Origin: a virus
Taxonomy: Duplodnaviria > Caudoviricetes
DNA: 64,000 bases
Virus record (IMG/VR): IMGVR_UViG_3300020434_000055
Direction: 5' to 3' (one strand)
Shown one piece after another: positions 3 to 28,634 of this stretch (its first letter is position 1; every line of letters starts with the position of its first letter). The position numbers were made by a program, and so were the translations under genes. Under the pieces are notes generated by a model, which was not told the DNA's origin, searched no databases, and worked only from the letters and a program-made list of their open reading frames with translations.

Positions 3-482
3 CACTATGCTAATAACCTTGGTAACACTATAGCATATGAAGTTTTTACTGCAGAAAGTACTTCTTCAGCCTGTAATGCTTTTGAATATAATGCTTCTAG
101 AGGATCTGTAGCAACTCCTCTTATACTACAAGCTAATGACTTGGTATTTTCTCATACAGCAAAAGGTCGCGATGGTACACAATTTATTGATGTAGGTTAT
201 ATAGGATTTGGAATAGATTCATCTGGTACAATTGGTACTGGTAATTTACCAGGAAAAATCTTCTTAACTACAACAACAGATGGTGGAACTTCAACTCATG
301 ATGCAACACTTGATTCAAAAGGTACTTTTGCAATAACTGGTGCAATGCAATTAGCTGTTTATGCCGATGACGCCGCAAGAGATGCCGCAATAGCTTCTCC
401 GGCCGCTGGTATGACAGTATTCAATACTACTGGTACAAAATTCCAAGGATATACAGGCGCCGCCTGGGTCGACTTAAACTAA
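3..482 (+). CDS. C-terminal part of a virion/tail-fibre-type protein (5'-truncated by window edge)
   Basis: Frame is open from position 3 (HYANNLGNTIAYEVF...SRGSVATPLILQAND) into the listed ORF 141-482. Gly/Thr/Ser-rich beta-type composition and a terminal GMTVFNTTGTKFQGYTGAAW motif like those ending phage fibre proteins. Confidence 0.55.
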   Translation, partial: HYANNLGNTIAYEVFTAESTSSACNAFEYNASRGSVATPLILQANDLVFSHTAKGRDGTQFIDVGYIGFGIDSSGTIGTGNLPGKIFLTTTTDGGTSTHDATLDSKGTFAITGAMQLAVYADDAARDAAIASPAAGMTVFNTTGTKFQGYTGAAWVDLN

Positions 483-487
483 TTTAA

Positions 488-1633
488 TTAAATTGTTGAT
501 AATTGTTTTTCTTTAAAGTCTTTCTGACTTTTATATGTCCATTTAGTAAGTTCGTATTCTTTTACATCATTAGGTTTAAACATATATTTTTCTGGGACTG
601 TATCGTGCAATAATTTACCTTCATTAACAACTGCATCACGTAACATTATTTGATGTAAAAAATTTGTTACTGGTTTTCCTGGAACAAAATCGCACCAAGG
701 ACCACATTGTAATTGTTCTAGGTCTATAGTTTTAGGATCACTCCATTGAATAATCCTGTGAGGTATTCCATTAATGTTTACCATATAATGATATAAATTA
801 TCATCAGCAGTTTTCTTTTCCCAAGTCCAACCTTTGCGTTCGCATATTTCTTTAATCTTTGCTACGTGTCTACTTAAAAAGAATTTAGGTTCGTCTGGAG
901 ATCTACCAATATCAGACCCTGCTCTAATTCTATATTGCCAAGATTTATTTCCTAAACTTTGTATTTCTTCTAAAACTTCTTCCATATGATCCAAATGCTC
1001 TAAAGTGTATCCTACATAGTAAACAAAAATTCCTTCTTTTATACAATTGTCAATTCCAATTAATTGTTTTTCATGAATTTTTTTACCTTGATAACTACAA
1101 TGATTCATTCCAATCATAACTGCTGTTATACCTGCTTCTGCAATTTGACGTGTCCAATTTCTATCTGAAAATTTTACACCATTTGTTAATATAGCAATAT
1201 CTTCTTTTCGATTACATTTACGCAAAGTATTTCTAATTTGTGTAATTAATTCGGGCAAATCTTTTCTTACTGTAGGTTCTGCACCAGCTAAAATAACTAC
1301 GCCAGCGTCTGAATGTAATCTATTTTCAACTTGCGAACAAATTATGTTTATAGGTTTGTCTAGTGTTCTATTATCTGGTCTATGATAACAATGAGGACAA
1401 TTTAAATTACATTTGTCTGTAACTTCTATTAATACTCCATCCGGTATAGTATATCCTGCTTTATCATAAATCAAACTGTTGTAAAATTCAACATCAGTTT
1501 CTACAAGATACTCCATATGTCCGTGTTCAGGGCACGTTTTATTAAGATAAACTGCATTATTTTTAGTAATACGTTCTGCTGGAATATGTCTATAACAAGT
1601 ATGACACAAACTTATTGTTTTAGTATCGTTCAT
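488..1633 (-). CDS. Radical SAM protein, tetraether lipid synthase (Tes/MJ0619)-like, shortened
   Basis: N-terminal rubredoxin-like ligand set SLCHTC...KTCPEHG, core motif VTDKCNLNCPHC, AGAEPTVRKDLPELI and TNG. The family call relies on my recollection of the MJ0619 sequence. Confidence 0.75.
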   Translation of the reverse strand: MNDTKTISLCHTCYRHIPAERITKNNAVYLNKTCPEHGHMEYLVETDVEFYNSLIYDKAGYTIPDGVLIEVTDKCNLNCPHCYHRPDNRTLDKPINIICSQVENRLHSDAGVVILAGAEPTVRKDLPELITQIRNTLRKCNRKEDIAILTNGVKFSDRNWTRQIAEAGITAVMIGMNHCSYQGKKIHEKQLIGIDNCIKEGIFVYYVGYTLEHLDHMEEVLEEIQSLGNKSWQYRIRAGSDIGRSPDEPKFFLSRHVAKIKEICERKGWTWEKKTADDNLYHYMVNINGIPHRIIQWSDPKTIDLEQLQCGPWCDFVPGKPVTNFLHQIMLRDAVVNEGKLLHDTVPEKYMFKPNDVKEYELTKWTYKSQKDFKEKQLSTI

Positions 1634-1637
1634 ACAA

Positions 1638-2324
1638 TTATTTATAGATACTTATTGCTTGGTCAATGAAGTCATCTGGGTAGCTATTACGAAAACTTTC
1701 AAAGCATAGTAATTGAGCTTTATCAAAGGATACAGGAGCATTAACGTCTATATTCATAGCTTTCATTTGTTCATACATTATTACTTTTCTATCATTTGAT
1801 ATATGACTTAAATGATCTTTAACAGTGATTTTAGGTTCGTGAACCATATAACTAAAAAAATAATTAATAGATTTAAGTCTACCTTCTACTACAAAATAAC
1901 TGCTAGGATGAAGACTATACTTGTACATACCTATATCTTTATGTGCTTGAATTATTTCTAACATCTGTTCTTTCCAATTAGGCAATACATCTTCATATGT
2001 TTTATTATGACTTTGCTCCCAGAAGTCTACACCTTCTATACCTAAATGAATTTTTTTCTCTGTATAATTTATATCAAGTATGGATGGTATGTGTTGAGGA
2101 TACTTACTATGCATTTTTAATAACATATTAGTTTCTCTCAACCATTTTTGATTCATTAATTCTGCATCTATTATTTGATTATGTCCTTTATGATATAATG
2201 TATCATTAAAAAACCACTGTACAAATTCAGTTTTATCTTTGTTTACTAAACTAGTATAAACTAAATTATTCCTACATAGCCCTTTATCAGGAACATTATT
2301 ATAATAATATTCGTAATTAATCAT
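1638..2324 (-). CDS. Hypothetical protein with degenerate protein-kinase-like fold
   Basis: RETNMLLKM (helix-C-like), IPSILDI, KYSLHPSSYFV (cf. HGDLHPxN) and KSINYFF (cf. LIDFG) occur in the expected order; the catalytic Asp residues are absent. Confidence 0.4.
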   Translation of the reverse strand: MINYEYYYNNVPDKGLCRNNLVYTSLVNKDKTEFVQWFFNDTLYHKGHNQIIDAELMNQKWLRETNMLLKMHSKYPQHIPSILDINYTEKKIHLGIEGVDFWEQSHNKTYEDVLPNWKEQMLEIIQAHKDIGMYKYSLHPSSYFVVEGRLKSINYFFSYMVHEPKITVKDHLSHISNDRKVIMYEQMKAMNIDVNAPVSFDKAQLLCFESFRNSYPDDFIDQAISIYK

Positions 2325-2916
2325 TATATCTCCATAATCTTTGTTTATATAATTGAGATAAAAATATTTGAGGATTTAAACGCCAAATACTTTGTGGAGT
2401 ATTTCTATAATTTAAATCTTTAATATATTCTAAACAACCAGATTTTGCTAACATAGGTGCCCATATTTTATGCACTAATTTTTGAGATCCTGCTTCATTT
2501 TTGTTTGTTGTTATATAAAGTTTTTTGTTTTCTAATGAATACCCCCCATAAGGTTTACCTAAAAGTCCTACCCATTCAATACAAGCAGGCATAAAAAATT
2601 GAGGTGTAACACTTTGATGTTCTACAATTTGTTTTTTAGTTCTTACATTATTAATTGGCAATTCATCTGTGAACACGCAAGTTCTTGCCAATATTCTATA
2701 ACTATTTTCTCCCATTTCATCAAAAGAATGTGCGGCAGTAGACCCAACAATTTTATTTTTATATTGTAAAAACCAAACTTGCCATTCTCGTTCTTTACTA
2801 ATAGAATCTATTAATATTTTTTTTGAACTATTATTTTCGAATCCTTTTTGTTTAGCATTTTGGTAAAAATTAACTAAATCTAAACTTTCTTCGTAAGGTA
2901 TTATTTTGTAATCCAT
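2317..2916 (-). CDS. Putative GNAT-fold acetyltransferase
   Basis: VWFLQYKNKIVGSTAAH followed by YRILARTCV resembles GNAT beta2-beta4. 199 aa. Confidence 0.45.
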   Translation of the reverse strand: MDYKIIPYEESLDLVNFYQNAKQKGFENNSSKKILIDSISKEREWQVWFLQYKNKIVGSTAAHSFDEMGENSYRILARTCVFTDELPINNVRTKKQIVEHQSVTPQFFMPACIEWVGLLGKPYGGYSLENKKLYITTNKNEAGSQKLVHKIWAPMLAKSGCLEYIKDLNYRNTPQSIWRLNPQIFLSQLYKQRLWRYND

Positions 2917-2932
2917 GAATTTTTTCCGGCAT

Positions 2933-2954
2933 CAATATTTAACACTAAATATTG
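2933..2954. promoter_or_regulatory. Back-to-back TAAATA late-promoter pair forming a 9-bp inverted repeat
   Basis: CAATATTTA-acac-TAAATATTG. TAAATA lies on + at 2946-2951 and on - at 2941-2936, between divergent genes. Confidence 0.6.
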
Positions 2955-2956
2955 GC

Positions 2957-3736
2957 ATGATTAAAGGAATTGGTGGTCAACCATATATAAATTTAGATCC
3001 TTACATTGATATAGACACATACAAAAAACTTCATTATAAATTGTGTGAAGGTTTGGTAAAATCAGAATATAAAAAAGAAGGTAATATGGTAAAACCTGGA
3101 GGTTGCGAAGGTGCTTATGATTTATGGTTTAAACCAATCTATCAAGTGTTAGAAGAATATCATGAATTGCCTGACGACCACGAAATAAAACAAATTGGTA
3201 AAAAAATTGGTGAGTACGATAATAGAGATCAATTTATACTATTTTTAAAATTGTCTATGGGAGCATATGATCCTTATCAATTTATTTTTATAAAATCTGA
3301 AGAAGGTGGTTGGGAAAGTAGATTTGAAGAAAAACAATGGACATCTGATTCTAAATATTTTCCAGAACTAAGACAGTGGTTAGAAAAACTTGTGTCTGAT
3401 AAAGTTTTTGAACATTTAGGAAGAGTAATATTTTTCAAAGCCGAACACGATGTATTCATGCCATTGCATAGAGATTTAATACTACCTAATGAAAATGATT
3501 ACACAGATCATCGACATGAATTTATTCATATACGTACTAACTTAGACAAACCTGTTTATATATGGGACGGAAAAGACAAAAAAATACTTATTGAAAGCCA
3601 TGCTACGTTCTTTAATGATCAAGACTGGCACGCAGGTGGAAAAACTCCTAAACAAACTTTTAGTTTAAGAATTGATGGAAAATTTACTGAATCTTTTAGA
3701 AAAAAGATAGGAATAGGCCATTTAGAAAATTACTAA
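2957..3736 (+). CDS. Cupin/2OG-Fe(II) oxygenase-like protein (Asp/Asn beta-hydroxylase-like C-terminal domain)
   Basis: GRVIFF...PLHRD...FFNDQDWHAG gives an HxD...H facial triad. Start moved from 2915 to ATG 2957, 5 nt after TAAATA. Confidence 0.6.
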   Translation: MIKGIGGQPYINLDPYIDIDTYKKLHYKLCEGLVKSEYKKEGNMVKPGGCEGAYDLWFKPIYQVLEEYHELPDDHEIKQIGKKIGEYDNRDQFILFLKLSMGAYDPYQFIFIKSEEGGWESRFEEKQWTSDSKYFPELRQWLEKLVSDKVFEHLGRVIFFKAEHDVFMPLHRDLILPNENDYTDHRHEFIHIRTNLDKPVYIWDGKDKKILIESHATFFNDQDWHAGGKTPKQTFSLRIDGKFTESFRKKIGIGHLENY

Positions 3737-4293
3737 TGAAAATATTAATCACAGGACATACATCACCAATGGGTAAAGATGTTTATGAACACTATTCAAA
3801 AGATCATGAGTGTTTAGGAGTAAGTAGAACATCTGGTTACGACTTAAACAAATCAGAGGATCAGAATAGAGTAGTTACTGAAGCATTAGCACATGATATA
3901 TTTTTAAACATAGCACACGTTGACGCAGTACAATCAATATTATTAAACAAATTAAACGAACGTTGGACTGCTGAAGCACCACTTAAAAAAGTAATTACAA
4001 TAGGATCATTAATTACAAAATTAGATAAAAAGTTATTAGATAAAGTTAACATAGACAAAAAATATCTTGCAGACAAACATCATCTAGATAGTGTAAGTGA
4101 TTCTTTAAGCAATGAAAAGCCATTTGGCTCACAACTACAATTCAGTTTGATTAGAGTCTTAAATTATGGACCTAAAACAGGAGAACGTGAAGGCGAACCA
4201 ACTTGCAATGTAAACGACATTGTACGTTCTATTGATTATGTAATTAATGAACCTATGTATATAGGTATGATGAATATAAGGAGAAGAGTTTAA
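3736..4293 (+). CDS. Short-chain dehydrogenase/reductase-like protein
   Basis: MKILITGHTSPMG Rossmann start, DIFLNIAH, ITIGS, and a YxxxK motif (YLADK). Confidence 0.65.
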   Translation: MKILITGHTSPMGKDVYEHYSKDHECLGVSRTSGYDLNKSEDQNRVVTEALAHDIFLNIAHVDAVQSILLNKLNERWTAEAPLKKVITIGSLITKLDKKLLDKVNIDKKYLADKHHLDSVSDSLSNEKPFGSQLQFSLIRVLNYGPKTGEREGEPTCNVNDIVRSIDYVINEPMYIGMMNIRRRV

Positions 4294-4294
4294 G

Positions 4295-4900
4295 ATGAAT
4301 CATGCAAAACTTTATGATAATTTTAAAGACAAATTTGATTGTGAAAAACTAATATCGCAATTAAAAAAACATAAGGGTGTTAGACGTTCATCTGATATTC
4401 CAACTGAAGATACAGAATATGGTGACAAAGCAGTATGGAGAAAAACTGTTGGAGACCTTTGGAAAAGTGTTGGCTACACAGAATTAGATTCTGTAGAATG
4501 GTGGAATTTATATTCTGGTGAACATTTTGATTCAGACTTTGTAACACAATTTGAAAATCTTGTAAATGCTGATAAATTTATGTGCTGGGTAAGTTCTATT
4601 AACCCAGGCAAGTGTGTTCCTAATCATTATGACATTGTACCAGAGTATAGCAAATTAAAAGATGATCCTAAAATGGTCAGATTTGCTTTTTTCATAGACA
4701 AACCTGAAACAGGTAAAGTATTCATCATTAAAGACCAAGCCTTTCATATGTGCAACCAAGGAGATTGTTACGTATGGAATAAATGGGACGAATGGCATAT
4801 GGGTATGAACACTTCTAGTTCAATAAAGTACATTTGGAATTTTATCGGATTAAAAAGAAAAGAAGGCGGAGATGTTTTGAAATTTAGACATTTCTTTTAA
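4295..4900 (+). CDS. 2OG-Fe(II) oxygenase/cupin-like protein
   Basis: INPGKCVPNHYD...GDCYVW..WDEWHMGMN: HxD...H plus double-stranded beta-helix pattern. Confidence 0.65.
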   Translation: MNHAKLYDNFKDKFDCEKLISQLKKHKGVRRSSDIPTEDTEYGDKAVWRKTVGDLWKSVGYTELDSVEWWNLYSGEHFDSDFVTQFENLVNADKFMCWVSSINPGKCVPNHYDIVPEYSKLKDDPKMVRFAFFIDKPETGKVFIIKDQAFHMCNQGDCYVWNKWDEWHMGMNTSSSIKYIWNFIGLKRKEGGDVLKFRHFF

Positions 4901-4903
4901 AAA

Positions 4904-5560
4904 ATGATAGATACATCAATTAAAGTTTTTAATAAATTCAAAGATGGTTCTTTACCGTGGTTAGAATTAGATTTGGATTTTAGTTCATATATAAAAGAAT
5001 CAGAATTTACTGCCGTTGAACCTTATTATGTAACACACAGAGAAGGCGAAACACATAAAGATTGGGAAAGTTGTTGCATTCATGGATTAGGTATTGACAA
5101 AACAAGAGTAGCAACAGATTATGAATATGACAATGAGTTAACTGCGCCATACGATTGGACTCCGTTAGCAAATTTGGCTCCAACAGTTAGAAAATTTTGG
5201 GAAGAGTTCCCAGCAGAAAAATACACTAGAATACGTTTTATGAAATTAAAGCCAGGCGGTAAAATAGATTGGCATAACGACCGTCCACAAAAATTACCTG
5301 ATGATATATGCGAATCAGTAATACCAATAAATGTTGCTGTAACAAATCCAGCATTATGTTATATGGAAATAGAAGATCACGGTATTGTACCTTGGAGAAA
5401 CGGCAAAGTATTTTTAATTAATATTTTAAAAAATCATACAGTAGTCAATAATTCAAATGCTGATAGAATTCATATGATTGGTACTGTATATGTAGGAAAC
5501 AAAAGAAAAGAATTTAATAGTTTACTTGAAAAAAGTTTAAGAAGAAAATTGATTAAGTAA
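4904..5560 (+). CDS. Aspartyl/asparaginyl beta-hydroxylase family protein
   Basis: RIRFMKLKPGGKIDWHND...INILKNHTVVNNSNADRIHMI. Confidence 0.75.
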   Translation: MIDTSIKVFNKFKDGSLPWLELDLDFSSYIKESEFTAVEPYYVTHREGETHKDWESCCIHGLGIDKTRVATDYEYDNELTAPYDWTPLANLAPTVRKFWEEFPAEKYTRIRFMKLKPGGKIDWHNDRPQKLPDDICESVIPINVAVTNPALCYMEIEDHGIVPWRNGKVFLINILKNHTVVNNSNADRIHMIGTVYVGNKRKEFNSLLEKSLRRKLIK

Positions 5561-6163
5561 AATTTCATGAGCCATAACAATTCTCCATTCAGGTATAGGA
5601 GTACCTACTCCATCATAATTTTCTGATACGTCTATATCTTTATACCAAGAATAATGAGGATATGTAGGATTAAATGCCATCTTACCTTGTCTAACAAAAG
5701 CTCTCTTTTTTTCTCCAACACAAATACCACATTTCATTATATCTTCAGTAGGTATAGCTAAACTGTATAAAATTGTATAGCATTTTCCTAAATGCTGATC
5801 CTTTTCAGAATCTCCATTAACTTCACTTTGTGGAGGTACGCCATTAAGAGAGACTTTATGTAATCCTTTTAAATTTTCTCTAGCAAACTCTGTACTCTTT
5901 TTAAAATATTTGTATGCTTCTTTTTCTTGACCATTTAAATAAACTTGCTTACTATACCGAGAATTAATATTGTCAAGATATTCTGATATGTTAAGTTCTG
6001 ATTTCCAATTTGGTCTATCTCTAGGAATTTCTAAATTCCAACTTATTTTTTGTAAATGGTCATTACCATCAACAAAATACCAATTATAATCAGCAGTTAA
6101 TAATTTATGATATTCTTGTAATTTATCGTAACTATTATATGTTTTTAAATCTATGAATTCCAT
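5537..6163 (-). CDS. Degenerate beta-hydroxylase-like cupin
   Basis: KVSLNGVPPQSEV...YTILYSL...AFNPTYPHYSW follows the fold of its neighbours, but the HxD is replaced (NGD); only the distal His is kept. Confidence 0.4.
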   Translation of the reverse strand: MEFIDLKTYNSYDKLQEYHKLLTADYNWYFVDGNDHLQKISWNLEIPRDRPNWKSELNISEYLDNINSRYSKQVYLNGQEKEAYKYFKKSTEFARENLKGLHKVSLNGVPPQSEVNGDSEKDQHLGKCYTILYSLAIPTEDIMKCGICVGEKKRAFVRQGKMAFNPTYPHYSWYKDIDVSENYDGVGTPIPEWRIVMAHEILLNQFSS

Positions 6164-6171
6164 TGTATCTT

Positions 6172-6177
6172 TATTTA
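6172..6177 (-). promoter_or_regulatory. TAAATA late-promoter-like motif
   Basis: 8 nt upstream of ATG 6163, with no Shine-Dalgarno between them. Confidence 0.5.
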
Positions 6178-6210
6178 CTTTCTTTCATTTGGTCTGAATT
6201 AAAAGAAGAA

Positions 6211-6882
6211 TTAGTCATAGTCTATAAGCACCTCAAAGCCACAATCTCGTTTTAAATTTAACACTTCTTGCAAAGCAAATTGTTCAACTTGAAATGTTAT
6301 ACAAAAATCAGAAATTTTTTTAAAATCACTAATTAAACCATCTTTATTAAGCCTGTTTAATAAACAAGAAAAACTACGATCAAAAAGATATCTTAAATTA
6401 TATGGAGGATTTTCTACTTTACAAGTTACTACTGTAGGTTCTTGTAAATCAATTTTATTTAAAAGTTTTCTAATTACTAATTCATATCTATCTTTATATC
6501 CATAATTACTTGCAGTATGCAACCGACCTGCATCCATTTCATATAAAATATCATTAGCAACACAAGGATATGTTACCAATCTTTCTATATCAGTTAGGTA
6601 ACTCTGTTCAGATTCTAATGTTAAATGATAACGATCATCTATATCAGCATGAGCAGTATAACACTCTCCTGGTTTCATTACATTTATTCTTGCTTCTCCT
6701 ACGGGTCCTATATTATAAAATAATTCTCCAAGACTAGTACCATTATACACAGGAAGTAACTCCCATTCATCATAAAAGAAATCACCTTTTGGTTTAGTCA
6801 AAACGTTTTTACCAGGACCAAAATGTTTAACTAAATCAAATATTTCTTTAGAGGAATGTGTTATACCAGTCTTTTTAAGCAT
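6211..6882 (-). CDS. Aspartyl/asparaginyl beta-hydroxylase-like protein with C-terminal extension
   Basis: ARINVMKPGECYTAHADIDDRYHL...MDAGRLHTASNYGYKDRYELVI. Confidence 0.7.
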   Translation of the reverse strand: MLKKTGITHSSKEIFDLVKHFGPGKNVLTKPKGDFFYDEWELLPVYNGTSLGELFYNIGPVGEARINVMKPGECYTAHADIDDRYHLTLESEQSYLTDIERLVTYPCVANDILYEMDAGRLHTASNYGYKDRYELVIRKLLNKIDLQEPTVVTCKVENPPYNLRYLFDRSFSCLLNRLNKDGLISDFKKISDFCITFQVEQFALQEVLNLKRDCGFEVLIDYD

Positions 6883-6887
6883 ACCAA

Positions 6888-6918
6888 TATTTACCGTGAA
6901 AAATAATATGCATATTTA
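6888..6918 (-). promoter_or_regulatory. Tandem TAAATA late-promoter-like motifs
   Basis: TAAATA at 6918-6913 (followed by TGCATA) and at 6893-6888, the latter 5 nt before ATG 6882. Confidence 0.55.
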
Positions 6919-6938
6919 ATTACGATAAGTATTAATTG

Positions 6939-7757
6939 ATGCCTATGAATAAACGAGTAAAAAAACTTTACGAAAACAGTACCTACAAAAACATAATTCA
7001 CAATGTTGCTGATGTATATTTTCCTTTGGATCCAAAATGGAAAAACATAGGAATAAGCCTTAGTGGTGGATGTGATAGTGCTTTATTGGCATATGTTATA
7101 TGCGACATAATTAAACAGAAAAAACTTTATACCAAAATACATATAATCTATAACGTTAGATTATGGAAAACACGTCCTTGGCAACAATATATTTTTAAAC
7201 AAGTGCTTTCTTGGTTTAAAGAAATGTTTAAAGATTTATGGTTTGTTGAACATACTAATTTTATTGCACCAGATTTAGAATGGGGCTCTAAAGGTCCAAA
7301 TATCATAGACGAATATGGCAAATTAAAAAGTGGTAATCAAATTGAATTAAGATCACACGCAGAATATATAGGTCACAAATATGAATTAGATGCTTGGTAT
7401 TGCGGACTTACTAAAAATCCTGAAACAGAATTTGATGAGCGACTCTTAGATAGAGATAGTACATTAACAAATGATACTATTGAAAATCTACATCGATTGA
7501 TAAAGCCACACATGAATGGCGTGGCTTGTCATCCTTTCACCTTCGTACAAAAAGACTGGATAGTATCTCAATATAAGAGATTAGGCATCATGAATCTATT
7601 CAATCTTACTAGAAGTTGCGAAGGTGATAAGGAAACTTATCCCGAAATATTTAAAGACTTGGATTATAAAACATATGTTCCAGGTAAAGATGTTCCTGTA
7701 TGTGGTAAATGTTTTTGGTGTAAAGAAAGACAATGGGGTATAGACAATAGTGACTGA
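6939..7757 (+). CDS. QueC-like PP-loop (adenine nucleotide alpha-hydrolase) protein
   Basis: IGISLSGGCDSALL PP-loop and C-terminal TRSC...CGKCFWCKER Zn-binding pattern typical of QueC-like enzymes. The ORF track start 6936 is TTG; the first ATG is 6939. Confidence 0.7.
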   Translation: MPMNKRVKKLYENSTYKNIIHNVADVYFPLDPKWKNIGISLSGGCDSALLAYVICDIIKQKKLYTKIHIIYNVRLWKTRPWQQYIFKQVLSWFKEMFKDLWFVEHTNFIAPDLEWGSKGPNIIDEYGKLKSGNQIELRSHAEYIGHKYELDAWYCGLTKNPETEFDERLLDRDSTLTNDTIENLHRLIKPHMNGVACHPFTFVQKDWIVSQYKRLGIMNLFNLTRSCEGDKETYPEIFKDLDYKTYVPGKDVPVCGKCFWCKERQWGIDNSD

Positions 7758-9168
7758 AAGTAATGAATATTGGTTAAATCCTAAAGATTCTAAATTAGGT
7801 AAGTGGCAAAGAGAAATAGAATCCGTTAGTGGTTCTTGTACTTTTTGTGTATTACCTTGGATCCATTTTGCTACTCGCCCTAATGGAGATATGCGTTTAT
7901 GTTGTAGTGCTAATGCCAGTGGAGCAGGTAAGGATCATAAAGTAGGTCTTGTTAAAAAAGAAGATGGCACACCAGCAAACTTTGGAAAAGATACACCAAT
8001 GAGTGCTTGGAATAATGAATATATGAAATCAGTTCGTAAAACTATGTTAGCAGGAAAAATTCCTGCTAGTTGTACTAAATGTTTTAACGAAGAAAAAATA
8101 GGAGTAGTTAGTAAACGTGTCTGGGAAACGGGTACGTGGCACAAAGACGGTATAGACATTCCAGAATTAATAAAGCAAACAACAGAAGACGGCATAGTAC
8201 CTGAAACTTTAAGATATTTAGATTTACGATTAGGTCATACTTGCAATATTAAATGTGTTATGTGTTCACCACATGATAGTTCAAGATGGGTAGCAGATTG
8301 GCAACAACTTATGCCACAACTAACAATACCTACTGTTAAAAAACAAATGTCTTGGGGTAAACAAGAATTTAACAACAAGTGGCACGAAAAAGATACATTT
8401 TGGGCAGAAATGAATAAGCAAATTCCTAATTTAAAACAAGTATACTTTGCTGGGGGCGAACCTTTAATGATTAAAGAGCATAAAACATTTATTGAAGAAA
8501 TTGTACGACAAGGATATCAAGATAAAATCTTATTACGATATAATTCAAATGGAATACTAGTAGACAAAGACTTAATTGAATTATGGAAAAAATTTAAAAA
8601 AGTTAAATTTGCAATTAGCATGGACGCTTGTCATGAACGAGATGAATATATACGTTTTCCAACTAACTGGGATACCGTAGAAAAGAATCTTCGTATGTTA
8701 GACGACACTCCCGACAATATACAAACAAGTTTAGCAACTGCTATACAAATTTTTAATGTAAAACACTTGCCAGACTTTATGAAATGGAAAGTAGAATCTA
8801 AATTTAAAAAACTTAATTTAGGAACTGTACCCGGTGGTACACAAATGGGAGGTGGATTAGTTAATATGCACTTGCTTTACATACCTACATTTTTAAGTAT
8901 TCAAATATTACCTAAAGAGGATAAACAAGAAGTTCGTGAACGTTATACAGAATTTAAAGAATGGTTATGGAAAAACTACAGACAAGATGATGAATATTGG
9001 AAACACAATCCTTATGGCTGGAAACGTTGGGAGGCTGTAATGGATCATATGGATGAAAAAGATAATAGTCATCTACTTCCAGGATTTAAAGAATACGTTA
9101 CTAAACTAGATCGTATAAGAAAATTATCTGCTAAATCCACTTTTCCTGAGTTATCACATCTTTTATAA
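7750..9168 (+). CDS. Radical SAM protein with N-terminal SPASM/twitch-like Cys domain
   Basis: CTFCVLPW...LCC...CTKC precedes the core LGHTCNIKCVMC and FAGGEP. Confidence 0.85.
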   Translation: MTESNEYWLNPKDSKLGKWQREIESVSGSCTFCVLPWIHFATRPNGDMRLCCSANASGAGKDHKVGLVKKEDGTPANFGKDTPMSAWNNEYMKSVRKTMLAGKIPASCTKCFNEEKIGVVSKRVWETGTWHKDGIDIPELIKQTTEDGIVPETLRYLDLRLGHTCNIKCVMCSPHDSSRWVADWQQLMPQLTIPTVKKQMSWGKQEFNNKWHEKDTFWAEMNKQIPNLKQVYFAGGEPLMIKEHKTFIEEIVRQGYQDKILLRYNSNGILVDKDLIELWKKFKKVKFAISMDACHERDEYIRFPTNWDTVEKNLRMLDDTPDNIQTSLATAIQIFNVKHLPDFMKWKVESKFKKLNLGTVPGGTQMGGGLVNMHLLYIPTFLSIQILPKEDKQEVRERYTEFKEWLWKNYRQDDEYWKHNPYGWKRWEAVMDHMDEKDNSHLLPGFKEYVTKLDRIRKLSAKSTFPELSHLL

Positions 9169-9826
9169 GATTAAAAACTTGTTTATCTCCTTCAGGCCCT
9201 AAATGATTAACTCTGAAGCCAACTAAATTTTGTAAAAATGGTAAATTTTCTTCACACCAGGCTCTTTTTGGATCTGTTCTACAACTAATATAATACAAAG
9301 GTTTTCTTATTTCTGTTCCGTGTTTCCAAGTGTACAAATAATTAATATCTTTTAATTCTGCTTTGTTCCAAGGTTCAACTTTAGTATCTCCAAAACTCCA
9401 TAAGTGTAAAATTTTTCCTTTCATTTTAGACAAGTATTCATGGTCTAACCAATAAGCAACAGCCTGAAAATTTAATCTTTCTTTATTCCATTCTACTAAT
9501 TCTTCATAAAACATTTGAGCGGCTTTATGTTTTTTACTAGAACCGTCATAGGCACTAACTGGATTTAAATCTCCTTTTGAATGATATGTTCTAAAAGGAT
9601 CGGTCCAAGCAAATATACAATAATCTAAATCTTTAAATTTGTGAAAGTTTTTTGTAAAATGTATAATAGCAGTCCAATAACTTGAACCACCTATACCTGT
9701 ATTCACAATTTCTGCATCTAATAAATCTGCTATTCGACCCATCCAATTGTCTTTAAGAGGATGAGCAATAAAACTGTCTCCGAAGAAACCTATCTTGTTT
9801 TTGGCACTTGAATGTCCGCTATACAT
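9131..9826 (-). CDS. SGNH/GDSL hydrolase-like protein
   Basis: GFFGDSF (block I), NTGIGGSS (block II), C-terminal NHLGPEG (block V His). ATG 9826 is preceded by AAGG. Confidence 0.65.
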   Translation of the reverse strand: MYSGHSSAKNKIGFFGDSFIAHPLKDNWMGRIADLLDAEIVNTGIGGSSYWTAIIHFTKNFHKFKDLDYCIFAWTDPFRTYHSKGDLNPVSAYDGSSKKHKAAQMFYEELVEWNKERLNFQAVAYWLDHEYLSKMKGKILHLWSFGDTKVEPWNKAELKDINYLYTWKHGTEIRKPLYYISCRTDPKRAWCEENLPFLQNLVGFRVNHLGPEGDKQVFNLIKDVITQEKWI

Positions 9827-10770
9827 ACACACCTTTCTTGATTACAAATAACTTCATTTGTTGGAAATTTAAATTCTTCATCATATTTTTTACCTGTAAA
9901 TCCTTCAGATAATACTCTACAACCTGCTCCTAAATACATTCGCTTATCAAAATTAATATAAATTCTGTTTATTCCTGCTTTACATTTATAGCCACGCCAG
10001 TCTACAATATCATTTGCTACTGCCCAATAAGGATCAAATTCTTCTAAAATATCTGACTTAATCATAACCATACTTCTATCAAATTTAGTATCTACTTTTT
10101 CATTAACTCTTTGTTGAGATCTAATCGTATGTTTAAATATTTGTTTTTGTTCATCTGTATACGGATATAAATCTCTTTCAGTTGCGTTGTCAGTTTGCCA
10201 AGCATGATGTAAAGGTTTAGCTTGTATTCCCCACTCAGTTCTTTTACTATTTTTTAATATGTCTATTATTTCCATACATTTAGACCAGTCATCTGGTTTT
10301 ATCATTACATGACAAATACTGTCTATGTTATTGTCTGTCAAAAAGTCACACACATCTCTGATGTGTTCCGCCTTACAAAATTCTGGATGAACACTAAAAT
10401 GTACTGCAAAAAAATTTTTATAATTGTCTTGCCACCATTCCATTTTTCTACTACCATTTGTAATAGGTATAATTAAATTATTATCATTTTTATTAATATA
10501 TTCACATAGTTGTGAAAAGTCTTTATAAAGAGTTGGTTCACCTCCTCCAAATTTCCAAATAAAATGTGTAATACCTAATTTAGTATAATGTTCATGTAAC
10601 TTATCTATAAATTTTTTACTAGCTTCTAAGTTAATCCAAGGAAACGAATTATCATGTAATACAGGCAAACAATAAGAACAATTATAATTGCACGTATTAC
10701 CTAGAGTCCATTCAATTTGTAAAACATTGTTTAATTCAGGAAATTTATAAGTTATTTTGTGTATTTTCAT
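9790..10770 (-). CDS. Radical SAM protein with C-terminal twitch-like Cys motif
   Basis: IEWTLGNTCNYNCSYC, FGGGEP, CKAG...CNQERCVCIAD. Confidence 0.85.
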   Translation of the reverse strand: MKIHKITYKFPELNNVLQIEWTLGNTCNYNCSYCLPVLHDNSFPWINLEASKKFIDKLHEHYTKLGITHFIWKFGGGEPTLYKDFSQLCEYINKNDNNLIIPITNGSRKMEWWQDNYKNFFAVHFSVHPEFCKAEHIRDVCDFLTDNNIDSICHVMIKPDDWSKCMEIIDILKNSKRTEWGIQAKPLHHAWQTDNATERDLYPYTDEQKQIFKHTIRSQQRVNEKVDTKFDRSMVMIKSDILEEFDPYWAVANDIVDWRGYKCKAGINRIYINFDKRMYLGAGCRVLSEGFTGKKYDEEFKFPTNEVICNQERCVCIADIQVPKTR

Positions 10771-11662
10771 TTTTTATTTTTGTTAAATTTATATCCGCGG
10801 CGCAAGTACACCACTCTCTTGTACATACAATAGGATCTATAGGAAATTGAAACGTACCATTATAAATGTTACCTAAACTACCTCCTACTCTACAAGTTGC
10901 TCTATGCACATCACCGTCCCAATTAATCATTAAACTTTCTAAACCTGCATTACAAAGCCATCCTTTAAATTTATTAGTTTTTAAAATTAACATATCATTT
11001 ACATTACAAGTTTTGGTTTTATCTATTAAAGTATTGTGCGGTGGATTATGGTTTTGGATTTTCAAAAACTTTTTTTCTTCTTCATTATATCGATTCATAT
11101 CTTCAAAATCATCATGCTTTTTGGTCCAACGTATTGGACGTAAACTATACTTTATATTACCATTTAAAAGGCGTCTACAAGCGTCATGCACGTCGTTTAG
11201 TAAGCCGGGAAGCATCATTACGTGTACAAGAGCGTTCTTATTAACTGAGCTGTTAACTGCCCTTATAATAGTTTCCAAAACCTTTTTCCAGTCGTATTCA
11301 AAGTGCAAACTGAATACAATATGGTTAAGATAATTGTCCAAAATACTTTGATAATATTCGGCTGTTCTGGTCCCGTTGGTCGTTACATTTATCCATGTTA
11401 CTTTTGGTTTTGCGTATTCTAAAAGCTCTGTAAATTTTGGATGTACACAAGGCTCACCTCCTGTAAAACTTATTCTAGGTTTGTTCATTTTAGAAATAAT
11501 ATCTACAGTTTTTTTAAGGATTTCTATATCTGTATGTTCACTAAAATTATCATGTATCTCTGCAGGACAATAACTGCAATCATAGTTACATCTTTTACCT
11601 ATGTTCCATTCTATTTTGGTACTTTGCCGTACTTCTTCATATAAATGTTCTACTTTATACAT
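10745..11662 (-). CDS. Radical SAM protein (paralogue of 9790-10770)
   Basis: IEWNIGKRCNYDCSYC, FTGGEP, CNAG...CTREWCTCAAD. Start ATG 11662 overlaps the upstream stop. Confidence 0.85.
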   Translation of the reverse strand: MYKVEHLYEEVRQSTKIEWNIGKRCNYDCSYCPAEIHDNFSEHTDIEILKKTVDIISKMNKPRISFTGGEPCVHPKFTELLEYAKPKVTWINVTTNGTRTAEYYQSILDNYLNHIVFSLHFEYDWKKVLETIIRAVNSSVNKNALVHVMMLPGLLNDVHDACRRLLNGNIKYSLRPIRWTKKHDDFEDMNRYNEEEKKFLKIQNHNPPHNTLIDKTKTCNVNDMLILKTNKFKGWLCNAGLESLMINWDGDVHRATCRVGGSLGNIYNGTFQFPIDPIVCTREWCTCAADINLTKIKNENTQNNL

Positions 11663-12923
11663 ATGGAGCAAACTCCGGAATAATTTTTTCAAGCGGACCT
11701 TGATTTCTTGTTTTATCTAGTCTATGATTAAAATCTACACAATCTTTCCAATACTTGTTTAGATCTCTTGCTTTAAGAAAATTAATATTATCCTGAATTT
11801 GTTGTAATGTAATTTTTTCTAATATTGGATGTTCTTGAACTAATCTATATTGCTTAACTTTGTCCTTCATTAATTCTAATTTAGATATAACTTGATCTTT
11901 TAATTCTTTAGGTAATACTTGGGCACTTAAGGCTCTTGGATATTGTACTCTATGACTATAAAATACTATTTCTAACTTGTTTAAAAAGTAATCTATTACT
12001 TTGTCTATTTGCATTATATTATTAGACTGTACTGTAAATGCTCCTACTATTCTACTTACAGTAGGAATAGTTTTCATTATTCTAATATTATCTACAACAT
12101 CTTGAAATTTTCCATTGCTTCTAACATATTCATATACATCGTCTAAGCCATCTATACTAACATTAACAGCCACAGATTTAAATTTAGGCCAATAGTCTTT
12201 AATCCATCTTCCTTTTATTCCTAATACTGTACCATTTGTTGCATATTTTATTTCTATATTTTTTCCATTTTCACTAAGAAGATCTAAAATTTTATAATGC
12301 ATAGGATCCATTAATGGTTCTCCGCCAGCAAATTCTACTCTTTTAAAATGAGGTAATAGCTTTCTTAAACTATCCCAAAATTCTTTTTTATCATCAAATA
12401 ATCCTACATATGGAGCTTCTGTTAAACCTAAATCTTCTACTGCTTTAACAAGGTAATTGTCTTCCTTTTTATAATGTTCTACAATACTATTCCAATCTTT
12501 CCATTGCGTACTATCTAACGGATTGCACATACGACATTTTAAATTACATAAGTTATTAATTTTAATTTCAATAGTAGGTAATTCAAAAGGCATTGTCATA
12601 TCTGTAGTAAGACTTTTAAGTGCGTCAGGGTAAAGATTAACTCTTGATTCTGGCATATTATCTGCAATATGTCTTTGTCTTAAACTTTGTACTCCTTGGT
12701 CTTCTAGGTCAAAACACGGTTTACATACGTCAGGACGTTCATCGCTTAATACTTGACGTCTAACTTCACGCATATTTTCACCATTCCACGCTTCTTCTAA
12801 AGTTTCGTTTTTAATATTACCAATAGGAAGGCTTCTGCAACATACTTTAATTGCGCCATCTTCTCTAGTAGCAAGACCTGTAAAAGGGTGCATACAAAAC
12901 GTGCAACTTTTATTCTTTTTCAT
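11655..12923 (-). CDS. Radical SAM protein with N-terminal SPASM/twitch-like domain (paralogue of 7750-9168)
   Basis: CTFCMHPF...VCC...CKPC, core NLCNLKCRMC, FAGGEP. Confidence 0.85.
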   Translation of the reverse strand: MKKNKSCTFCMHPFTGLATREDGAIKVCCRSLPIGNIKNETLEEAWNGENMREVRRQVLSDERPDVCKPCFDLEDQGVQSLRQRHIADNMPESRVNLYPDALKSLTTDMTMPFELPTIEIKINNLCNLKCRMCNPLDSTQWKDWNSIVEHYKKEDNYLVKAVEDLGLTEAPYVGLFDDKKEFWDSLRKLLPHFKRVEFAGGEPLMDPMHYKILDLLSENGKNIEIKYATNGTVLGIKGRWIKDYWPKFKSVAVNVSIDGLDDVYEYVRSNGKFQDVVDNIRIMKTIPTVSRIVGAFTVQSNNIMQIDKVIDYFLNKLEIVFYSHRVQYPRALSAQVLPKELKDQVISKLELMKDKVKQYRLVQEHPILEKITLQQIQDNINFLKARDLNKYWKDCVDFNHRLDKTRNQGPLEKIIPEFAPYV

Positions 12924-12931
12924 AATATTAG

Positions 12932-12937
12932 TATTTA
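12932..12937 (-). promoter_or_regulatory. TAAATA late-promoter-like motif
   Basis: 8 nt upstream of ATG 12923, no SD. Confidence 0.5.
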
Positions 12938-12945
12938 ATGGGATT

Positions 12946-14325
12946 TTAAGTGTCTAAATCTTTCCAGTCATCTCCAAATCTCCACATAGGGGCTTTTAAT
13001 GAATCAAGGTCTACTTCATCAAATTTTTCTACAGGACCTGAGTACTGTTTATAATCTACAAAGCCTGACCAAGCATGAACTGAAACAATTAATTGTATTT
13101 TGGAATATTTTTCTTTTAATATACGTAAAAGTTTATTTTCTTTTTCTAATCTTTGTGTAACAGTCATAAAAGCTACTGTGGGCTCATAAGCAAAAATATT
13201 ACTAACATTAAAAATTGTATTTTCATCATTATTAACTTTTATATTAAACTCATTTAATAAATCACATTGAACAAAATCTATTTTTACTTCATCTTTTATA
13301 TTCCATAACTTGGAAATTTTACTAAATCTAGTAACAATTTCTTGTTTACTTTGAAACCAATCTGGTGCTTTTTTAATTAATTCTTCATCTTTGATTAATT
13401 CTTTTAAGAACTTATGATAGTCATGTCCTTTAAATTCATTAATTGTTTCTTTCATATACCACAATGCATTAGGATTATAATCATAAAATATAACTTCTGT
13501 ATTTTCATCATATCCATATTTGTCTAAATATAATAACCAATTAAATCCACTTGCAGGAACAATTAATTGTGTAATAGGTCCTTTTATTTTAACTTTTTGA
13601 AGTTTTTCTGTGTTAGTAGGATAATAAAGTCTATTCGCGGCAAAATTATATTTTTGATATATTTTTTCACTATTTTCTTGAAAGTCTGAATCGTATTCAG
13701 CATAATAACATTTTTTACCATCTCTAAATTTTTGATCAAATATAACTATATCCTCATCATTATCTAAAGCAATACTAATTATATTCCAACCATGACATTT
13801 ATCTTCATACTCTGTCATTTCATTACCAGGTTTAATCCAAATAGGTGTATGGTTATCATGATAATTTTCTTCACTTCTAATAGGTATTGCTTTTAAATGT
13901 TTTTCTTTTTCTTTTTCAGCACCTATTTCTGGATATTCATATTCGGCCCATTTTTTTAAATTAATAATATAACATTGATCATGAAGTTCGTAATAACTTC
14001 TTTTTCTATCTAATATATGTCCTGCTATAAAAAAATCTGTTTTAATTAATTCTTCGAGTTGTTCAAAAAATTGACTTCCTTCAAATTCTGTATCTGCTGT
14101 ATAAACTACTGCATGAGTATAATCTTTTTCACTTTGTTTTAAACCATTTTCTTCTGTTATTGCTGTTAACAAGTCATACCCATTACTATTAATATTCTGT
14201 ATTTGATAATCAGCAATATTTTTAATTAATTCTTTAGTCCACGCTCTTTGTATTTTGTACATATTGTCTATACAAATAAACACAACATCGGACGTTCTAT
14301 TCATAGCGTCAAATTTATATGCCAT
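12946..14325 (-). CDS. Hypothetical two-domain protein (possible GT-like N-terminus, SAM-binding-like C-terminus)
   Basis: C-terminal half has VPASGF...VIFYDYNPNAL...FVQCDLL, resembling methyltransferase motifs I-III. N-terminal assignment is weak. Confidence 0.35.
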   Translation of the reverse strand: MAYKFDAMNRTSDVVFICIDNMYKIQRAWTKELIKNIADYQIQNINSNGYDLLTAITEENGLKQSEKDYTHAVVYTADTEFEGSQFFEQLEELIKTDFFIAGHILDRKRSYYELHDQCYIINLKKWAEYEYPEIGAEKEKEKHLKAIPIRSEENYHDNHTPIWIKPGNEMTEYEDKCHGWNIISIALDNDEDIVIFDQKFRDGKKCYYAEYDSDFQENSEKIYQKYNFAANRLYYPTNTEKLQKVKIKGPITQLIVPASGFNWLLYLDKYGYDENTEVIFYDYNPNALWYMKETINEFKGHDYHKFLKELIKDEELIKKAPDWFQSKQEIVTRFSKISKLWNIKDEVKIDFVQCDLLNEFNIKVNNDENTIFNVSNIFAYEPTVAFMTVTQRLEKENKLLRILKEKYSKIQLIVSVHAWSGFVDYKQYSGPVEKFDEVDLDSLKAPMWRFGDDWKDLDT

Positions 14326-15032
14326 TAAAGAAAACCACCTTTCTTCGGTAGAGCTTTTGGATCTGTATTTCTAATATTACCATCGTCTATAGTCGTCTTG
14401 ACCATTTGACTATTAGGAGAATTACATCCTATAATCATATATCTTGTATATTTTTGTGTCTTCAATTCTACAGGTGGAAGAATTTCTTCTAAGTCTGTGG
14501 ATTCTGCAAATTCTGTCAAACTATTTTTACAATTTATATGACCTTTCCCTTCAGAAAAGTTATTACTTTGACATATTATTGTTTTGTTTTTAGGTAATAA
14601 TGTTATCCATTTATTAAAATCTTCTTGCGTCATATGTTCACACACTGTATTAATGATTATATCATAATCATTATAATTTTTAAAATTTAACATATCACAA
14701 GTTTCTGCTTTAAATCTTCCTTTTATTTCATATTCTTTATTCATTTCATAAGCTATTTTTTTACAATCTTCGTCTATATCAATGCTTAAAATCTTACTCA
14801 CAGATATTTCACTATTAAACAATAGTGTTGCCATTACACCATTCCAACCACCACATATAAGAACTTTAGCATCTATGATTCTTTGCATTTTATGAACTTC
14901 TTTAAGTCTTTCACATAACCAAACCTTACTTAATACTTGTCCCTTCCAAAAACTTTCTAATGTTTTATCTCTATCTTCGGATCCTCTTATAGTATCCATC
15001 CAGTATAATATGTCTTTAATATTGAGTTTCAA
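14325..15032 (-). CDS. Class I SAM-dependent methyltransferase-like protein
   Basis: VLICGGWNG (motif I), ILSIDID (motif II), TCDM, YDIIINTVCEH. Confidence 0.65.
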   Translation of the reverse strand: MKLNIKDILYWMDTIRGSEDRDKTLESFWKGQVLSKVWLCERLKEVHKMQRIIDAKVLICGGWNGVMATLLFNSEISVSKILSIDIDEDCKKIAYEMNKEYEIKGRFKAETCDMLNFKNYNDYDIIINTVCEHMTQEDFNKWITLLPKNKTIICQSNNFSEGKGHINCKNSLTEFAESTDLEEILPPVELKTQKYTRYMIIGCNSPNSQMVKTTIDDGNIRNTDPKALPKKGGFL

Positions 15033-16005
15033 ATTGTTCTCCTAATCTATCAAATTTTCCACATTGTTTTGAACATTCCATTAAAGGTTTATCTGTCCAA
15101 GTATCTTCTATTTTTCTAAAAAATTGCGAATCAAATATTTCTTTTAAAGATTTGTTATGCAAATTAGTAAATTCTCCTATTTGATCCATATAATCTACCC
15201 TTGAGTCTTGTGTAGGCAATGTCCATTGCAAATCTAACCAACAACAAGGACTAACAGTACCATCTGCTGAAATATATATTTGACTATATTTTTTAGCTTT
15301 ACAATCTATGACGCAAGAAGTTATTTTTGCTTCTTGCATTTTAGCTATCATTTCAAAACTTTTTTTACTTGGCTCCAATATATGCGTTGTCTTTCCTGTT
15401 TCATCTATAGCGTGAAATTTATCACTTTTAAATCTTGATGTATGTTTATAACTAAAAGATTTAAAGCCCAATTCCTTACTCATTGTATGGCATTGTTCTA
15501 CTTGATGTTCATTATGTTTAAAAACTAACATATGCCATTTTGCATAACCCCCTGCTTTAATAAATGCTTTTGCATTTGTAATTATTTTTTTCCAGTCAGT
15601 AGAAACACGATATAGATGATGAGTGTCTGCCAAACCATCTATACCAAAAGTTGTTTTTACATTTTCTTTAGCCAATCCTTCCCACCAATTTATATCTCTA
15701 GCACTACCATTTGTATGCATAGCTAATCTAATTTTTGGATTAATACTTTTAATATATTGATAAATTTCTAATGTATCTTGAGCAATTATAGGATCTCCTA
15801 AATTACCACACATGAATAAACTTTCTAATTGAATCAAAAATTCTGTTGGAAACCATTTTTTAAATGTATCTAAATTAATTTCCACAAGATGTATTAATGG
15901 ATTTAGAGGACCTCCACCTATTCTTCTAGGACACATAGGACATCTAGCTTGACATTTGCTAGTAATTTCTAAATGCACATCTTTTATTTCTGAATAATTA
16001 TACAT
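15016..16005 (-). CDS. Radical SAM/SPASM protein
   Basis: LEITSKCQARCPMC, GNLGDP, C-terminal CKAK...YISADGTVSPCCW...CSKQC. Confidence 0.85.
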   Translation of the reverse strand: MYNYSEIKDVHLEITSKCQARCPMCPRRIGGGPLNPLIHLVEINLDTFKKWFPTEFLIQLESLFMCGNLGDPIIAQDTLEIYQYIKSINPKIRLAMHTNGSARDINWWEGLAKENVKTTFGIDGLADTHHLYRVSTDWKKIITNAKAFIKAGGYAKWHMLVFKHNEHQVEQCHTMSKELGFKSFSYKHTSRFKSDKFHAIDETGKTTHILEPSKKSFEMIAKMQEAKITSCVIDCKAKKYSQIYISADGTVSPCCWLDLQWTLPTQDSRVDYMDQIGEFTNLHNKSLKEIFDSQFFRKIEDTWTDKPLMECSKQCGKFDRLGEQFETQY

Positions 16006-28612: not shown

Positions 28613-28634
28613 CTCCAGTTCTTAGCTGTATTTA
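28613..28634 (-). promoter_or_regulatory. TAAATA late promoter plus GGAG SD
   Basis: TAAATA at 28634-28629, GGAG at 28616-28613, ATG 28607. Confidence 0.55.

Follow-up and report, generated by a model that had tools for sequence, protein, structure and literature searches.

Background

The tetraether lipid synthase Tes (also GDGT-MAS, typified by MJ0619) is a radical S-adenosylmethionine (SAM) enzyme that joins two lipid tails by C(sp3)-C(sp3) coupling, by way of a substrate radical held on cluster sulfur (PMC9433317). The tails are accommodated in two hydrophobic pockets, one of which is formed by amphipathic helices. It has four metal sites, namely an iron in a rubredoxin-like ribbon with the ligand pattern C9-X2-C12-X20-C33-X2-H36, a [4Fe-4S]N cluster bound by C73, C77, C80 and a histidine, the SAM cluster, and a [4Fe-4S]C cluster that is held by three cysteines and the labile Met439 and whose sulfur carries the C-S intermediate (PMC9433317). 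Its surface cofactors have been proposed as the point of electron entry, and the strictly conserved Tyr459 lies next to the substrate carbon (PMC9433317). Here we describe a family of Tes relatives that is found mostly in phages, taking as reference the protein rSAM (P0001; 381 residues), which is encoded in a 64,000-nucleotide stretch of caudoviricete DNA (IMG/VR record IMGVR_UViG_3300020434_000055). We refer to this whole stretch as the window; it is AT-rich (about 30% GC) DNA of a T4-like phage, with genes including those for a gp46-type SbcC and for fibre and virion proteins.

A mostly phage-borne family with the fold of the tetraether lipid synthase

All the defining elements of the radical SAM superfamily are present in rSAM, namely the CX3CX2C motif, a GGE-type motif and a partial TIM barrel, and all of its top structural matches are radical SAM enzymes. 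Two Pfam models match the protein: 1) PF23545 (Zn_ribbon_HMPTM, the MJ0619-type ribbon) covers residues 5-45 with 56.5 bits against a cut-off of 27; and 2) PF04055 (Radical_SAM) covers residues 69-223 with 49.4 bits against a cut-off of 29.5. The ribbon ligands lie in the context SLC10-HT-C13 ... C34-PE-H37-G, and their spacing, C10-X2-C13-X20-C34-X2-H37, is identical to that of Tes. Among 89 diverse relatives the three ribbon cysteines are invariant and the histidine is present in 93%. The SAM-cluster motif reads VTDK-C75-NLN-C79-PH-C82 and is accompanied by AGAEPTVRKDLPELI, and the core further holds the GGE-type motif G117-A-E119 and T150-N-G152; C75, C79, C82, G117 and E119 are conserved, and CX3CX2C and GGEPTVR-type motifs are common to rSAM and Tes.

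Searches against solved structures place rSAM closest to Tes by both sequence and fold. By sequence its best solved relative is 7TOL (GDGT-MAS/Tes), with E 5.6e-21 for the single protein and 5.7e-49 for a profile of the 89 relatives. An AlphaFold2 (AF2) model built on an alignment of relatives (predicted local distance difference test, pLDDT, 94.3; predicted TM-score, pTM, 0.92) ranks 7TOM first in an exhaustive structural comparison (VIA), with Z 29.8 and a root mean square deviation of 4.0 Å over 329 aligned residues at 23% identity, and Foldseek agrees. Because this alignment spans model residues 2-339, the resemblance to Tes extends from the ribbon through the core to the C-terminal domain. 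The next structural matches are MoaA (Z 17.4), BlsE (16.9), SkfB (16.6) and viperin (16.1). MoaA, BlsE and viperin act on nucleotides or nucleoside sugars and share the core fold at Z 16-17, and viperin likewise lacks an auxiliary cluster; however, none of the three has the N-terminal ribbon, and their C-terminal domains are unlike that of rSAM.

No named family that we tested reached its cut-off on rSAM. The curated NCBIfam models for TrsS, Tes and MoaA score 100.2, 77.1 and 48.2 bits, against cut-offs of 490, 450 and 284. TrsS, a radical SAM (seleno)protein family (NF045646), is the best NCBIfam match and has both ribbon and radical SAM core, but its match is far under the cut-off and covers the core only (residues 67-210), and its profile places the SAM-cluster region about 20 positions further on than it lies in rSAM. 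The Tes model (NF045702) is matched over residues 68-198 alone, and for the MoaA model (TIGR02666) the score is below the cut-off and there are no conserved C-terminal cysteines for a GTP-binding cluster like that of MoaA. Thus rSAM is a real relative of Tes/MJ0619 and yet not a Tes; it has the Tes fold and is probably a working enzyme, from a family that is carried mostly by phages and would be a sister of the tetraether lipid synthase. Residing in phages alongside GNAT and kinase-type partners further sets it apart from Tes.

The gene is not a chance open reading frame (ORF), since one search recovered 367 homologues, all with ribbon and core and mostly of 340-385 residues, and an exhaustive search recovered 2341 representatives at E <= 0.001 (67 at E <= 1e-30). 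The Atlas cluster of rSAM has 879 members, and all those with a taxon record are viral. The short form was sampled in 11 different genomic contexts, among them T4-like loci and podovirus-like and P22/SU10-like contigs; 10 of these have phage hallmark genes, and the remaining one (L038) is not long enough for classification. Deposited phage genomes (INPHARED), in a set from which records close to the genome of the window may be missing, gave no match to rSAM by tblastn or to 12 kb of the window by megablast, and the BFVD viral structures gave generic radical SAM matches only (best TM 0.45) and no close one. A scan of 185,579 prokaryote species genomes with two peptide patterns, by which relatives can be missed, returned two partial matches of 32-33% identity over the N-terminal 200 residues. 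We found no paper on the family, its sole mention being as "radical SAM cassettes" in the host-recognition clusters of pelagimyophages. A tree of 123 relatives separates, with an SH-aLRT support of 99, a clade of mostly 400-residue or longer proteins from the other 95 rows, which are mostly of 316-395 residues and include the rSAM of the window.

Two of the four metal sites of Tes are retained

The mapping of residues between rSAM and Tes rests on the alignments printed by HMMER. Of the four metal sites of Tes rSAM keeps two: the Cys3His mononuclear site of the ribbon and the SAM-cleaving [4Fe-4S] cluster. SAM binding also looks intact, because the motif YRIRAGSDIGR aligns with the adenosine-binding loop of Tes, with R237, S240 and R244 in the places of Q268, S271 and R275. 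The ligands of the two auxiliary clusters have no conserved equivalents. At the [4Fe-4S]N site there is no cysteine between C34 and C75 of rSAM, and when the family profile is aligned with 7TOL, GCPYDCGLCPNH of Tes falls in a 25-residue insertion without counterpart in the phage family. Only one of 239 relatives has a further CX3CX2C ahead of the SAM motif and after the ribbon. The N-cluster insertion of Tes is therefore the special case, and the "stripped-down" state of rSAM need not mean loss.

At the C-terminal site, neither 29 close nor 89 diverse relatives show any conserved cysteine beyond the three of the ribbon and the three of the SAM motif, and therefore a Tes-type C-terminal cluster cannot form. 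The most frequent cysteines past C82 among the 89 relatives are C310 (40%), C197 (35%) and C314 (22%), two of which lie in the segment QC310-GPW-C314. In a weak second stretch of the profile alignment, which is not significant on its own but whose end points agree with the structural alignment, Tes C438 and M439 correspond to I294 and I295, C455 to C310, Y459 to C314 and C470 to L326. The counterpart of Tyr459 would accordingly be the variable C314, and no tyrosine in residues 300-330 reaches 70% conservation. The stretch leading from the core to the C-terminal domain is also shorter, with about 40 residues in rSAM as against about 150 in Tes, or about 110 fewer. As a first substrate radical cannot be stored while a second one is generated without the [4Fe-4S]C cluster, tetraether synthesis by the known mechanism is precluded.

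The original prediction had read this gene from the DNA alone as a phage-encoded, stripped-down Tes-like enzyme, and much of it is borne out. The rubredoxin-type SLCHTC...CPEHG site and the other motifs that it quoted are all present in the 381-residue ORF, the former within the PF23545 match; the kinship with Tes/MJ0619 is upheld by this ribbon, by the rank of TrsS and Tes ahead of MoaA and by the match to 7TOM; and the CxxxCxxCxxH segment that it reported missing is the insertion described above. The outcome that it named as refuting, best profile matches to an unrelated family such as MoaA and no rubredoxin domain, did not occur. The structure prediction that it recommended gave a Tes-like model, and the alignments show no conserved ligands for either auxiliary cluster. 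Its description of a derived enzyme with a different substrate fares unevenly: different chemistry is favoured, whereas "derived" implies a loss, and the change may have run in either direction, given the single occurrence of the N-cluster motif.

A proposed reaction on a polar, amine-bearing substrate

Building on the observed fold, the retained metal sites, the missing auxiliary ligands and the gene links described below, we consider that rSAM probably does different chemistry from Tes. On balance it seems probable, though by no means assured, that it is a single-cluster radical enzyme that works with an N-acetyltransferase on a polar, amine-bearing small molecule and not on lipid tails. The ribbon site would be the probable point of electron entry, passing an electron inward much as proposed for the surface cofactors of Tes. 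One reductive cleavage of SAM would then give one 5'-deoxyadenosyl radical and one hydrogen abstraction. With neither auxiliary cluster, one such abstraction is possible but no substrate radical could be held on cluster sulfur; the reaction might thus be, for example, a rearrangement, an elimination or an addition. The GNAT partner, encoded in the operon in the window and fused to the radical SAM enzyme in some other phages, would acetylate the amine-bearing substrate, or rSAM would use the acetylated form; a kinase-type protein is usually present as well. An amino sugar, a polyamine-like amine or an amino acid derivative would be the favoured substrate, and the placement among virion and tail-fibre genes suggests late expression and a product linked with the virion or with the recognition of the host.

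The C-terminal domain contains, besides the SAM-loop motif, the family-specific H282, I295-Q296-W297, H327-Q328 and R332-D333. The C-terminal residues that are invariant in the close family (N177, H178, Y181, Q182, Q190, R235, H282, Q296, W297, H327, Q328, R332, D333, N337, D344 and Y350) are mostly polar or aromatic, and hence a polar ligand fits better than a lipid tail. This bears directly on the alternative that rSAM performs Tes-like chemistry on the acyl or isoprenoid chain end of a host membrane lipid or of lipid A. Such a role would agree with the proximity of the whole fold, including the C-terminal domain, to Tes, with a roughly 400-residue cellular relative that adjoins a UbiA prenyltransferase gene, with the likeness of the GNAT encoded in the operon to long-chain N-acyltransferases among other GNATs, and with an LpxO-family-like hydroxylase match and Kdo-kinase-like look-alikes in the neighbourhood. 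However, the cluster that carries the C-S intermediate cannot form, the positions aligned (weakly) with Met439 and Tyr459 are not kept, and rSAM falls far short of Tes both in length, by the 110 residues noted above, and in its score on the Tes hidden Markov model (77 vs 450 bits), so that we regard lipid chemistry as very unlikely. The remodelling of host membrane lipids, which the original prediction had offered as one possible role, is likewise disfavoured by the lack of conserved [4Fe-4S]C ligands, by the polar C-terminal residues and by fused GNAT domains that resemble small-amine N-acetyltransferases.

Two members of the long clade were sampled for their context. The P0240 gene shares a gene cluster with further radical SAM genes and one SDR gene. 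P0216, a cellular-type protein of about 420 residues, is encoded in locus L031 (2194-6444) between a gene for a DUF362 Fe-S protein and one for a 622-residue UbiA prenyltransferase, which suggests that this branch does act on prenyl lipids.

Acetyltransferase fusions and the comparison with Elp3

The amine-directed role proposed for rSAM draws on the repeated association of its family with acetyltransferases. Six short-family members carry a C-terminal extension, and five of these extensions match GNAT models: Acetyltransf_1 is found in P0248, P0260 and P0241 with 27.7-36.2 bits (cut-off 20.7), and in P0215 and P0183 with 19.2 bits, just under the cut-off. Precomputed Pfam hits revealed four more proteins combining ribbon, core and GNAT families. 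In the tree of 123 relatives the fusions belong to two subclades, and since GNAT appears both as a fused domain and as an operon partner, this partner recurs. The fused domains match an uncharacterised acetyltransferase (E 4e-8), diamine acetyltransferase 2 (5e-6), and phosphinothricin and aminoglycoside acetyltransferases. The sixth extension, the 200 residues of P0132, matches none of the three neighbours of rSAM in the window considered below (g228, g199 and g273); the end of the P0132 gene is overlapped by one for a P-loop kinase (APS_kinase/AAA_33 type).

The fusion genes are phage genes in late virion modules. In a phage whose coat is of the P22 type, one such gene comes after a Collar-domain fibre gene; in an SU10/P22-like phage others are flanked by genes for a gp10-like hub and a gp7-like ejection protein. 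Other relatives are placed similarly, one after an Mtd_N fibre gene and another between portal and capsid genes, so that unrelated phages usually carry the gene within virion or tail-fibre modules. The solitary member in L026 (7337-9035), a podovirus-like contig of high GC content, has the portal and capsid genes on either side, and two genes ahead of it stands a Tad2-like gene, of a family known for acting as an anti-Thoeris sponge.

Elp3, a tRNA carboxymethyluridine synthase (PMC13315578), likewise has a radical SAM domain and after it a GNAT domain in one polypeptide. By analogy, the GNAT would bind acetyl-CoA, rSAM would take a hydrogen from the acetyl group, and the carbon radical would add to a nucleobase of tRNA or phage DNA, or to an unsaturated acceptor. 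The fused forms share the domain order of Elp3, in the window the two activities are encoded in the same operon, and one relative (P0132) is followed by the P-loop kinase-type gene just mentioned, which is reminiscent of Kti12, the partner of Elp3. On the other hand, the radical SAM domain of Elp3 comes only 39th among the structural matches and is distant (Z 10.1), the rSAM of the window has no GNAT domain by Pfam, and the GNAT parts of its relatives resemble small-amine acetyltransferases, with no Elp3 chain among the 48 matches listed; the family is, moreover, usually encoded in structural and not in nucleic-acid modules. Hence an Elp3-like reaction appears unlikely. We see just as little prospect for a wider version of it, a two-part phage radical machine in which the Tes-fold enzyme and the GNAT, fused or split, put an acetyl-CoA carbon radical onto a nucleobase or a virion component.

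The operon and its neighbourhood

In the window rSAM is the last gene of an operon with g199 and g228, and it lies between this pair and the end of a fibre-like gene (Table 1).

Table 1. Position of the rSAM gene, its domains and its neighbours in the window
Feature	Position	Strand	Basis
Radical SAM enzyme (rSAM, P0001), 381 residues	488..1633	-	ORF open, ATG start, Pfam, AF2 model, 7TOM match
C-terminal domain, residues 224-350, Tes fold, without conserved cluster ligands	584..964	-	Structural alignment to model residue 339; invariant columns
Radical SAM core, residues 69-223	965..1429	-	PF04055; aligned to 7TOL chain residues 112-295
Radical SAM cluster motif C75-X3-C79-X2-C82	1388..1411	-	Invariant in both alignments of relatives (29 close; 89 diverse)
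N-terminal metal ribbon, residues 5-45, ligands C10, C13, C34, H37	1499..1621	-	PF23545
g228, protein-kinase-like fold	1638..2324	-	Profile match to TTK kinase domain, E 1.4e-5; Atlas look-alikes; directly upstream of rSAM
g199, GNAT-fold acyltransferase-like, first gene of operon	2317..2916	-	AF2 model, pLDDT 77; structural matches
g273, conserved neighbour	2915..3736	+	tblastn synteny; divergent from g199 in window; directly downstream of rSAM in L027
C-terminal part of fibre-like gene	3..482	+	ORF list and sequence; converges on rSAM, 5-nucleotide gap

The genes g199 and g228 overlap by 8 nucleotides, and 4 nucleotides separate g228 from rSAM. The three genes g199, g228 and rSAM are direct neighbours in 17 IMG/VR loci and lie within 2 kb in 3 more. 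In locus L027, where rSAM is 34% identical to that of the window, g199 (47%) and g228 (54%) stand divergently beside it and g273 follows directly after it. The labels of kinase fold and GNAT given to g228 and g199 when the region was first read hold at the fold level; the trio does travel together, as then suggested, but it is not the fully separate three-gene unit envisaged, because g273 travels along. For g199 all 50 of the best structural matches to the model are GNAT enzymes (Z 9.2-11.6), while Pfam gave no hit and a profile of g199 gave no match among PDB sequences. A complex prediction for g199 with residues 1-352 of rSAM scored 0.00, below the mark, which is evidence neither way. The look-alikes of g228 in the Atlas belong to the Kdo, RIO1, APH and Pkinase families. 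In 11 orthologues of g228 the sequences H139-P-S, in place of HxD, and N154-Y-F, in place of DFG, are invariant or nearly so; the catalytic aspartates of both motifs thus appear to have been replaced, and the protein may be a pseudokinase or carry out other chemistry. With the P-loop gene beside P0132, a kinase-type partner recurs in two unrelated folds. No match was found for g273 in Pfam, NCBIfam or PDB with the single sequence, or in PDB with a profile. The divergent g199 (-) and g273 (+) share two bases of their start codons (2915-2916), so that the promoter of each must lie inside the coding sequence of the other.

A T4-type late promoter was considered for the octamer TATAAATA, 7 nucleotides upstream of the rSAM start, and dropped: the octamer coincides with the Tyr-Lys-stop codons of g228 and is kept in only 2 of 21 closely related loci. 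In the 64 kb as a whole TATAAATA occurs twice, against about 20 occurrences expected from shuffles, a strong depletion. Short, near-identical contigs from RNA libraries of three studies map to rSAM, g228, g199 and g273; we do not count them as proof of transcription, because their depth is low and DNA carry-over is possible.

The trio opens an island (488-16978) that packs seven radical SAM genes, of three or more architectures, into 16.5 kb. Besides the ribbon type at 488 these are two N-terminal twitch types (at 7750 with 400 bits and at 11655 with 333 bits on NF033640), one with a C-terminal SPASM domain at 15016, and another three at 9790, 10745 and 15998. Cupin-like, SDR-like and PP-loop genes are interspersed, and L027 repeats much of this set. 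In L022 two paralogous ribbon radical SAM genes (3356-4345 and 6001-7017), 31% and 33% identical to that of the window, lie 1.7 kb apart; such paralogues, seen also in L023, are carried by viral contigs of 127-221 kb near homologues of g273, g228 and twitch radical SAM genes and near g201-like genes. Elsewhere in the window, amid tail and fibre genes, a single ORF of 4885 residues spans 28632-43289 (-).

A kinase, a radical SAM isomerase and a GNAT acetyltransferase are also combined in the thymidine-type DNA hypermodification pathways of phages such as M6 and PaMx11, which employ a P-loop kinase, a spore photoproduct lyase-like radical SAM enzyme and a required aGPT-Pplase transferase (PMC8989533). 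The trio could on this pattern serve the modification of a base in phage DNA, but g228 has a protein-kinase fold and not a P-loop one, spore photoproduct lyase is a weak structural match to rSAM (Z 9.9), and the aGPT-Pplase transferase was matched by no ORF tested in the island. Since the known systems depend on these three components, this explanation is weak, and we consider it highly improbable.

The setting among virion genes raises a further alternative, in which rSAM alters a side chain or the backbone of a tail-fibre, capsid or ejection protein, while the GNAT acetylates a lysine or the N-terminus and the kinase-like protein phosphorylates or serves as a scaffold. The fibre-like gene converges on rSAM not only in the window but in 21 of 21 closely related loci, other relatives lie beside Mtd_N and Collar-domain fibre, portal/capsid and gp10-like/gp7-like virion genes, the island contains SPASM/twitch radical SAM and Asp/Asn-hydroxylase-like genes, which are of kinds that often act on proteins, and the best PDB match of g228 is a protein kinase. 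However, rSAM lacks the SPASM/twitch cluster and the conserved free cysteine that are common in peptide-modifying radical SAM enzymes, the fused GNAT domains are nearer to small-amine than to protein acetyltransferases, and solitary copies have no conserved candidate substrate gene. Accordingly, we hold modification of a virion protein to be rather unlikely.

Our preference for a small amine-bearing substrate modified jointly with an acetyltransferase has to be set against several observations that count against it. First, the best structural matches of g199 include the long-chain N-acyltransferases NcdE and FeeM, with which an acyl-chain substrate would be compatible. Second, comparing profiles gave no significant sequence similarity between g199 and the fused GNAT domains, so that their link rests on the fold and the repeated association. 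Third, some family members stand without a GNAT or kinase neighbour, and the adjacency to fibre genes may reflect only a common insertion site for accessory genes. Fourth, R237, S240 and R244, which form part of the conserved polar motif, align with the SAM-binding loop of Tes and not with a substrate site. Finally, in the broad family only 11 positions after residue 170 exceed 70% conservation, and this poor C-terminal conservation may mean that subfamilies differ in substrate.

Implications

What is new here is the fusion of a Tes-fold radical SAM enzyme to GNAT domains, the recurring kinase partner and the placement in virion modules across unrelated phages. To our knowledge, no enzyme of this fold has been characterised other than Tes, whose chemistry depends on the auxiliary clusters; a family that has kept the fold and the Cys3His site with both clusters dropped shows what the bare scaffold can do. 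The family also serves as an annotation warning, because its members are labelled MoaA, AslB or "organic radical activating enzyme" in their sources even though none of the named families tested reached its cut-off on rSAM. It flags a radical reaction that is common among ocean phages and has yet to be assigned, and the repeated fusion or pairing with an acetyltransferase offers a concrete handle for the search for its substrate. Were the acetyl-radical machine considered above to prove true, it would represent a second, independently evolved and phage-specific radical SAM-GNAT system. If the product acts on virions or in host recognition, the family would represent a new kind of phage tailoring chemistry.

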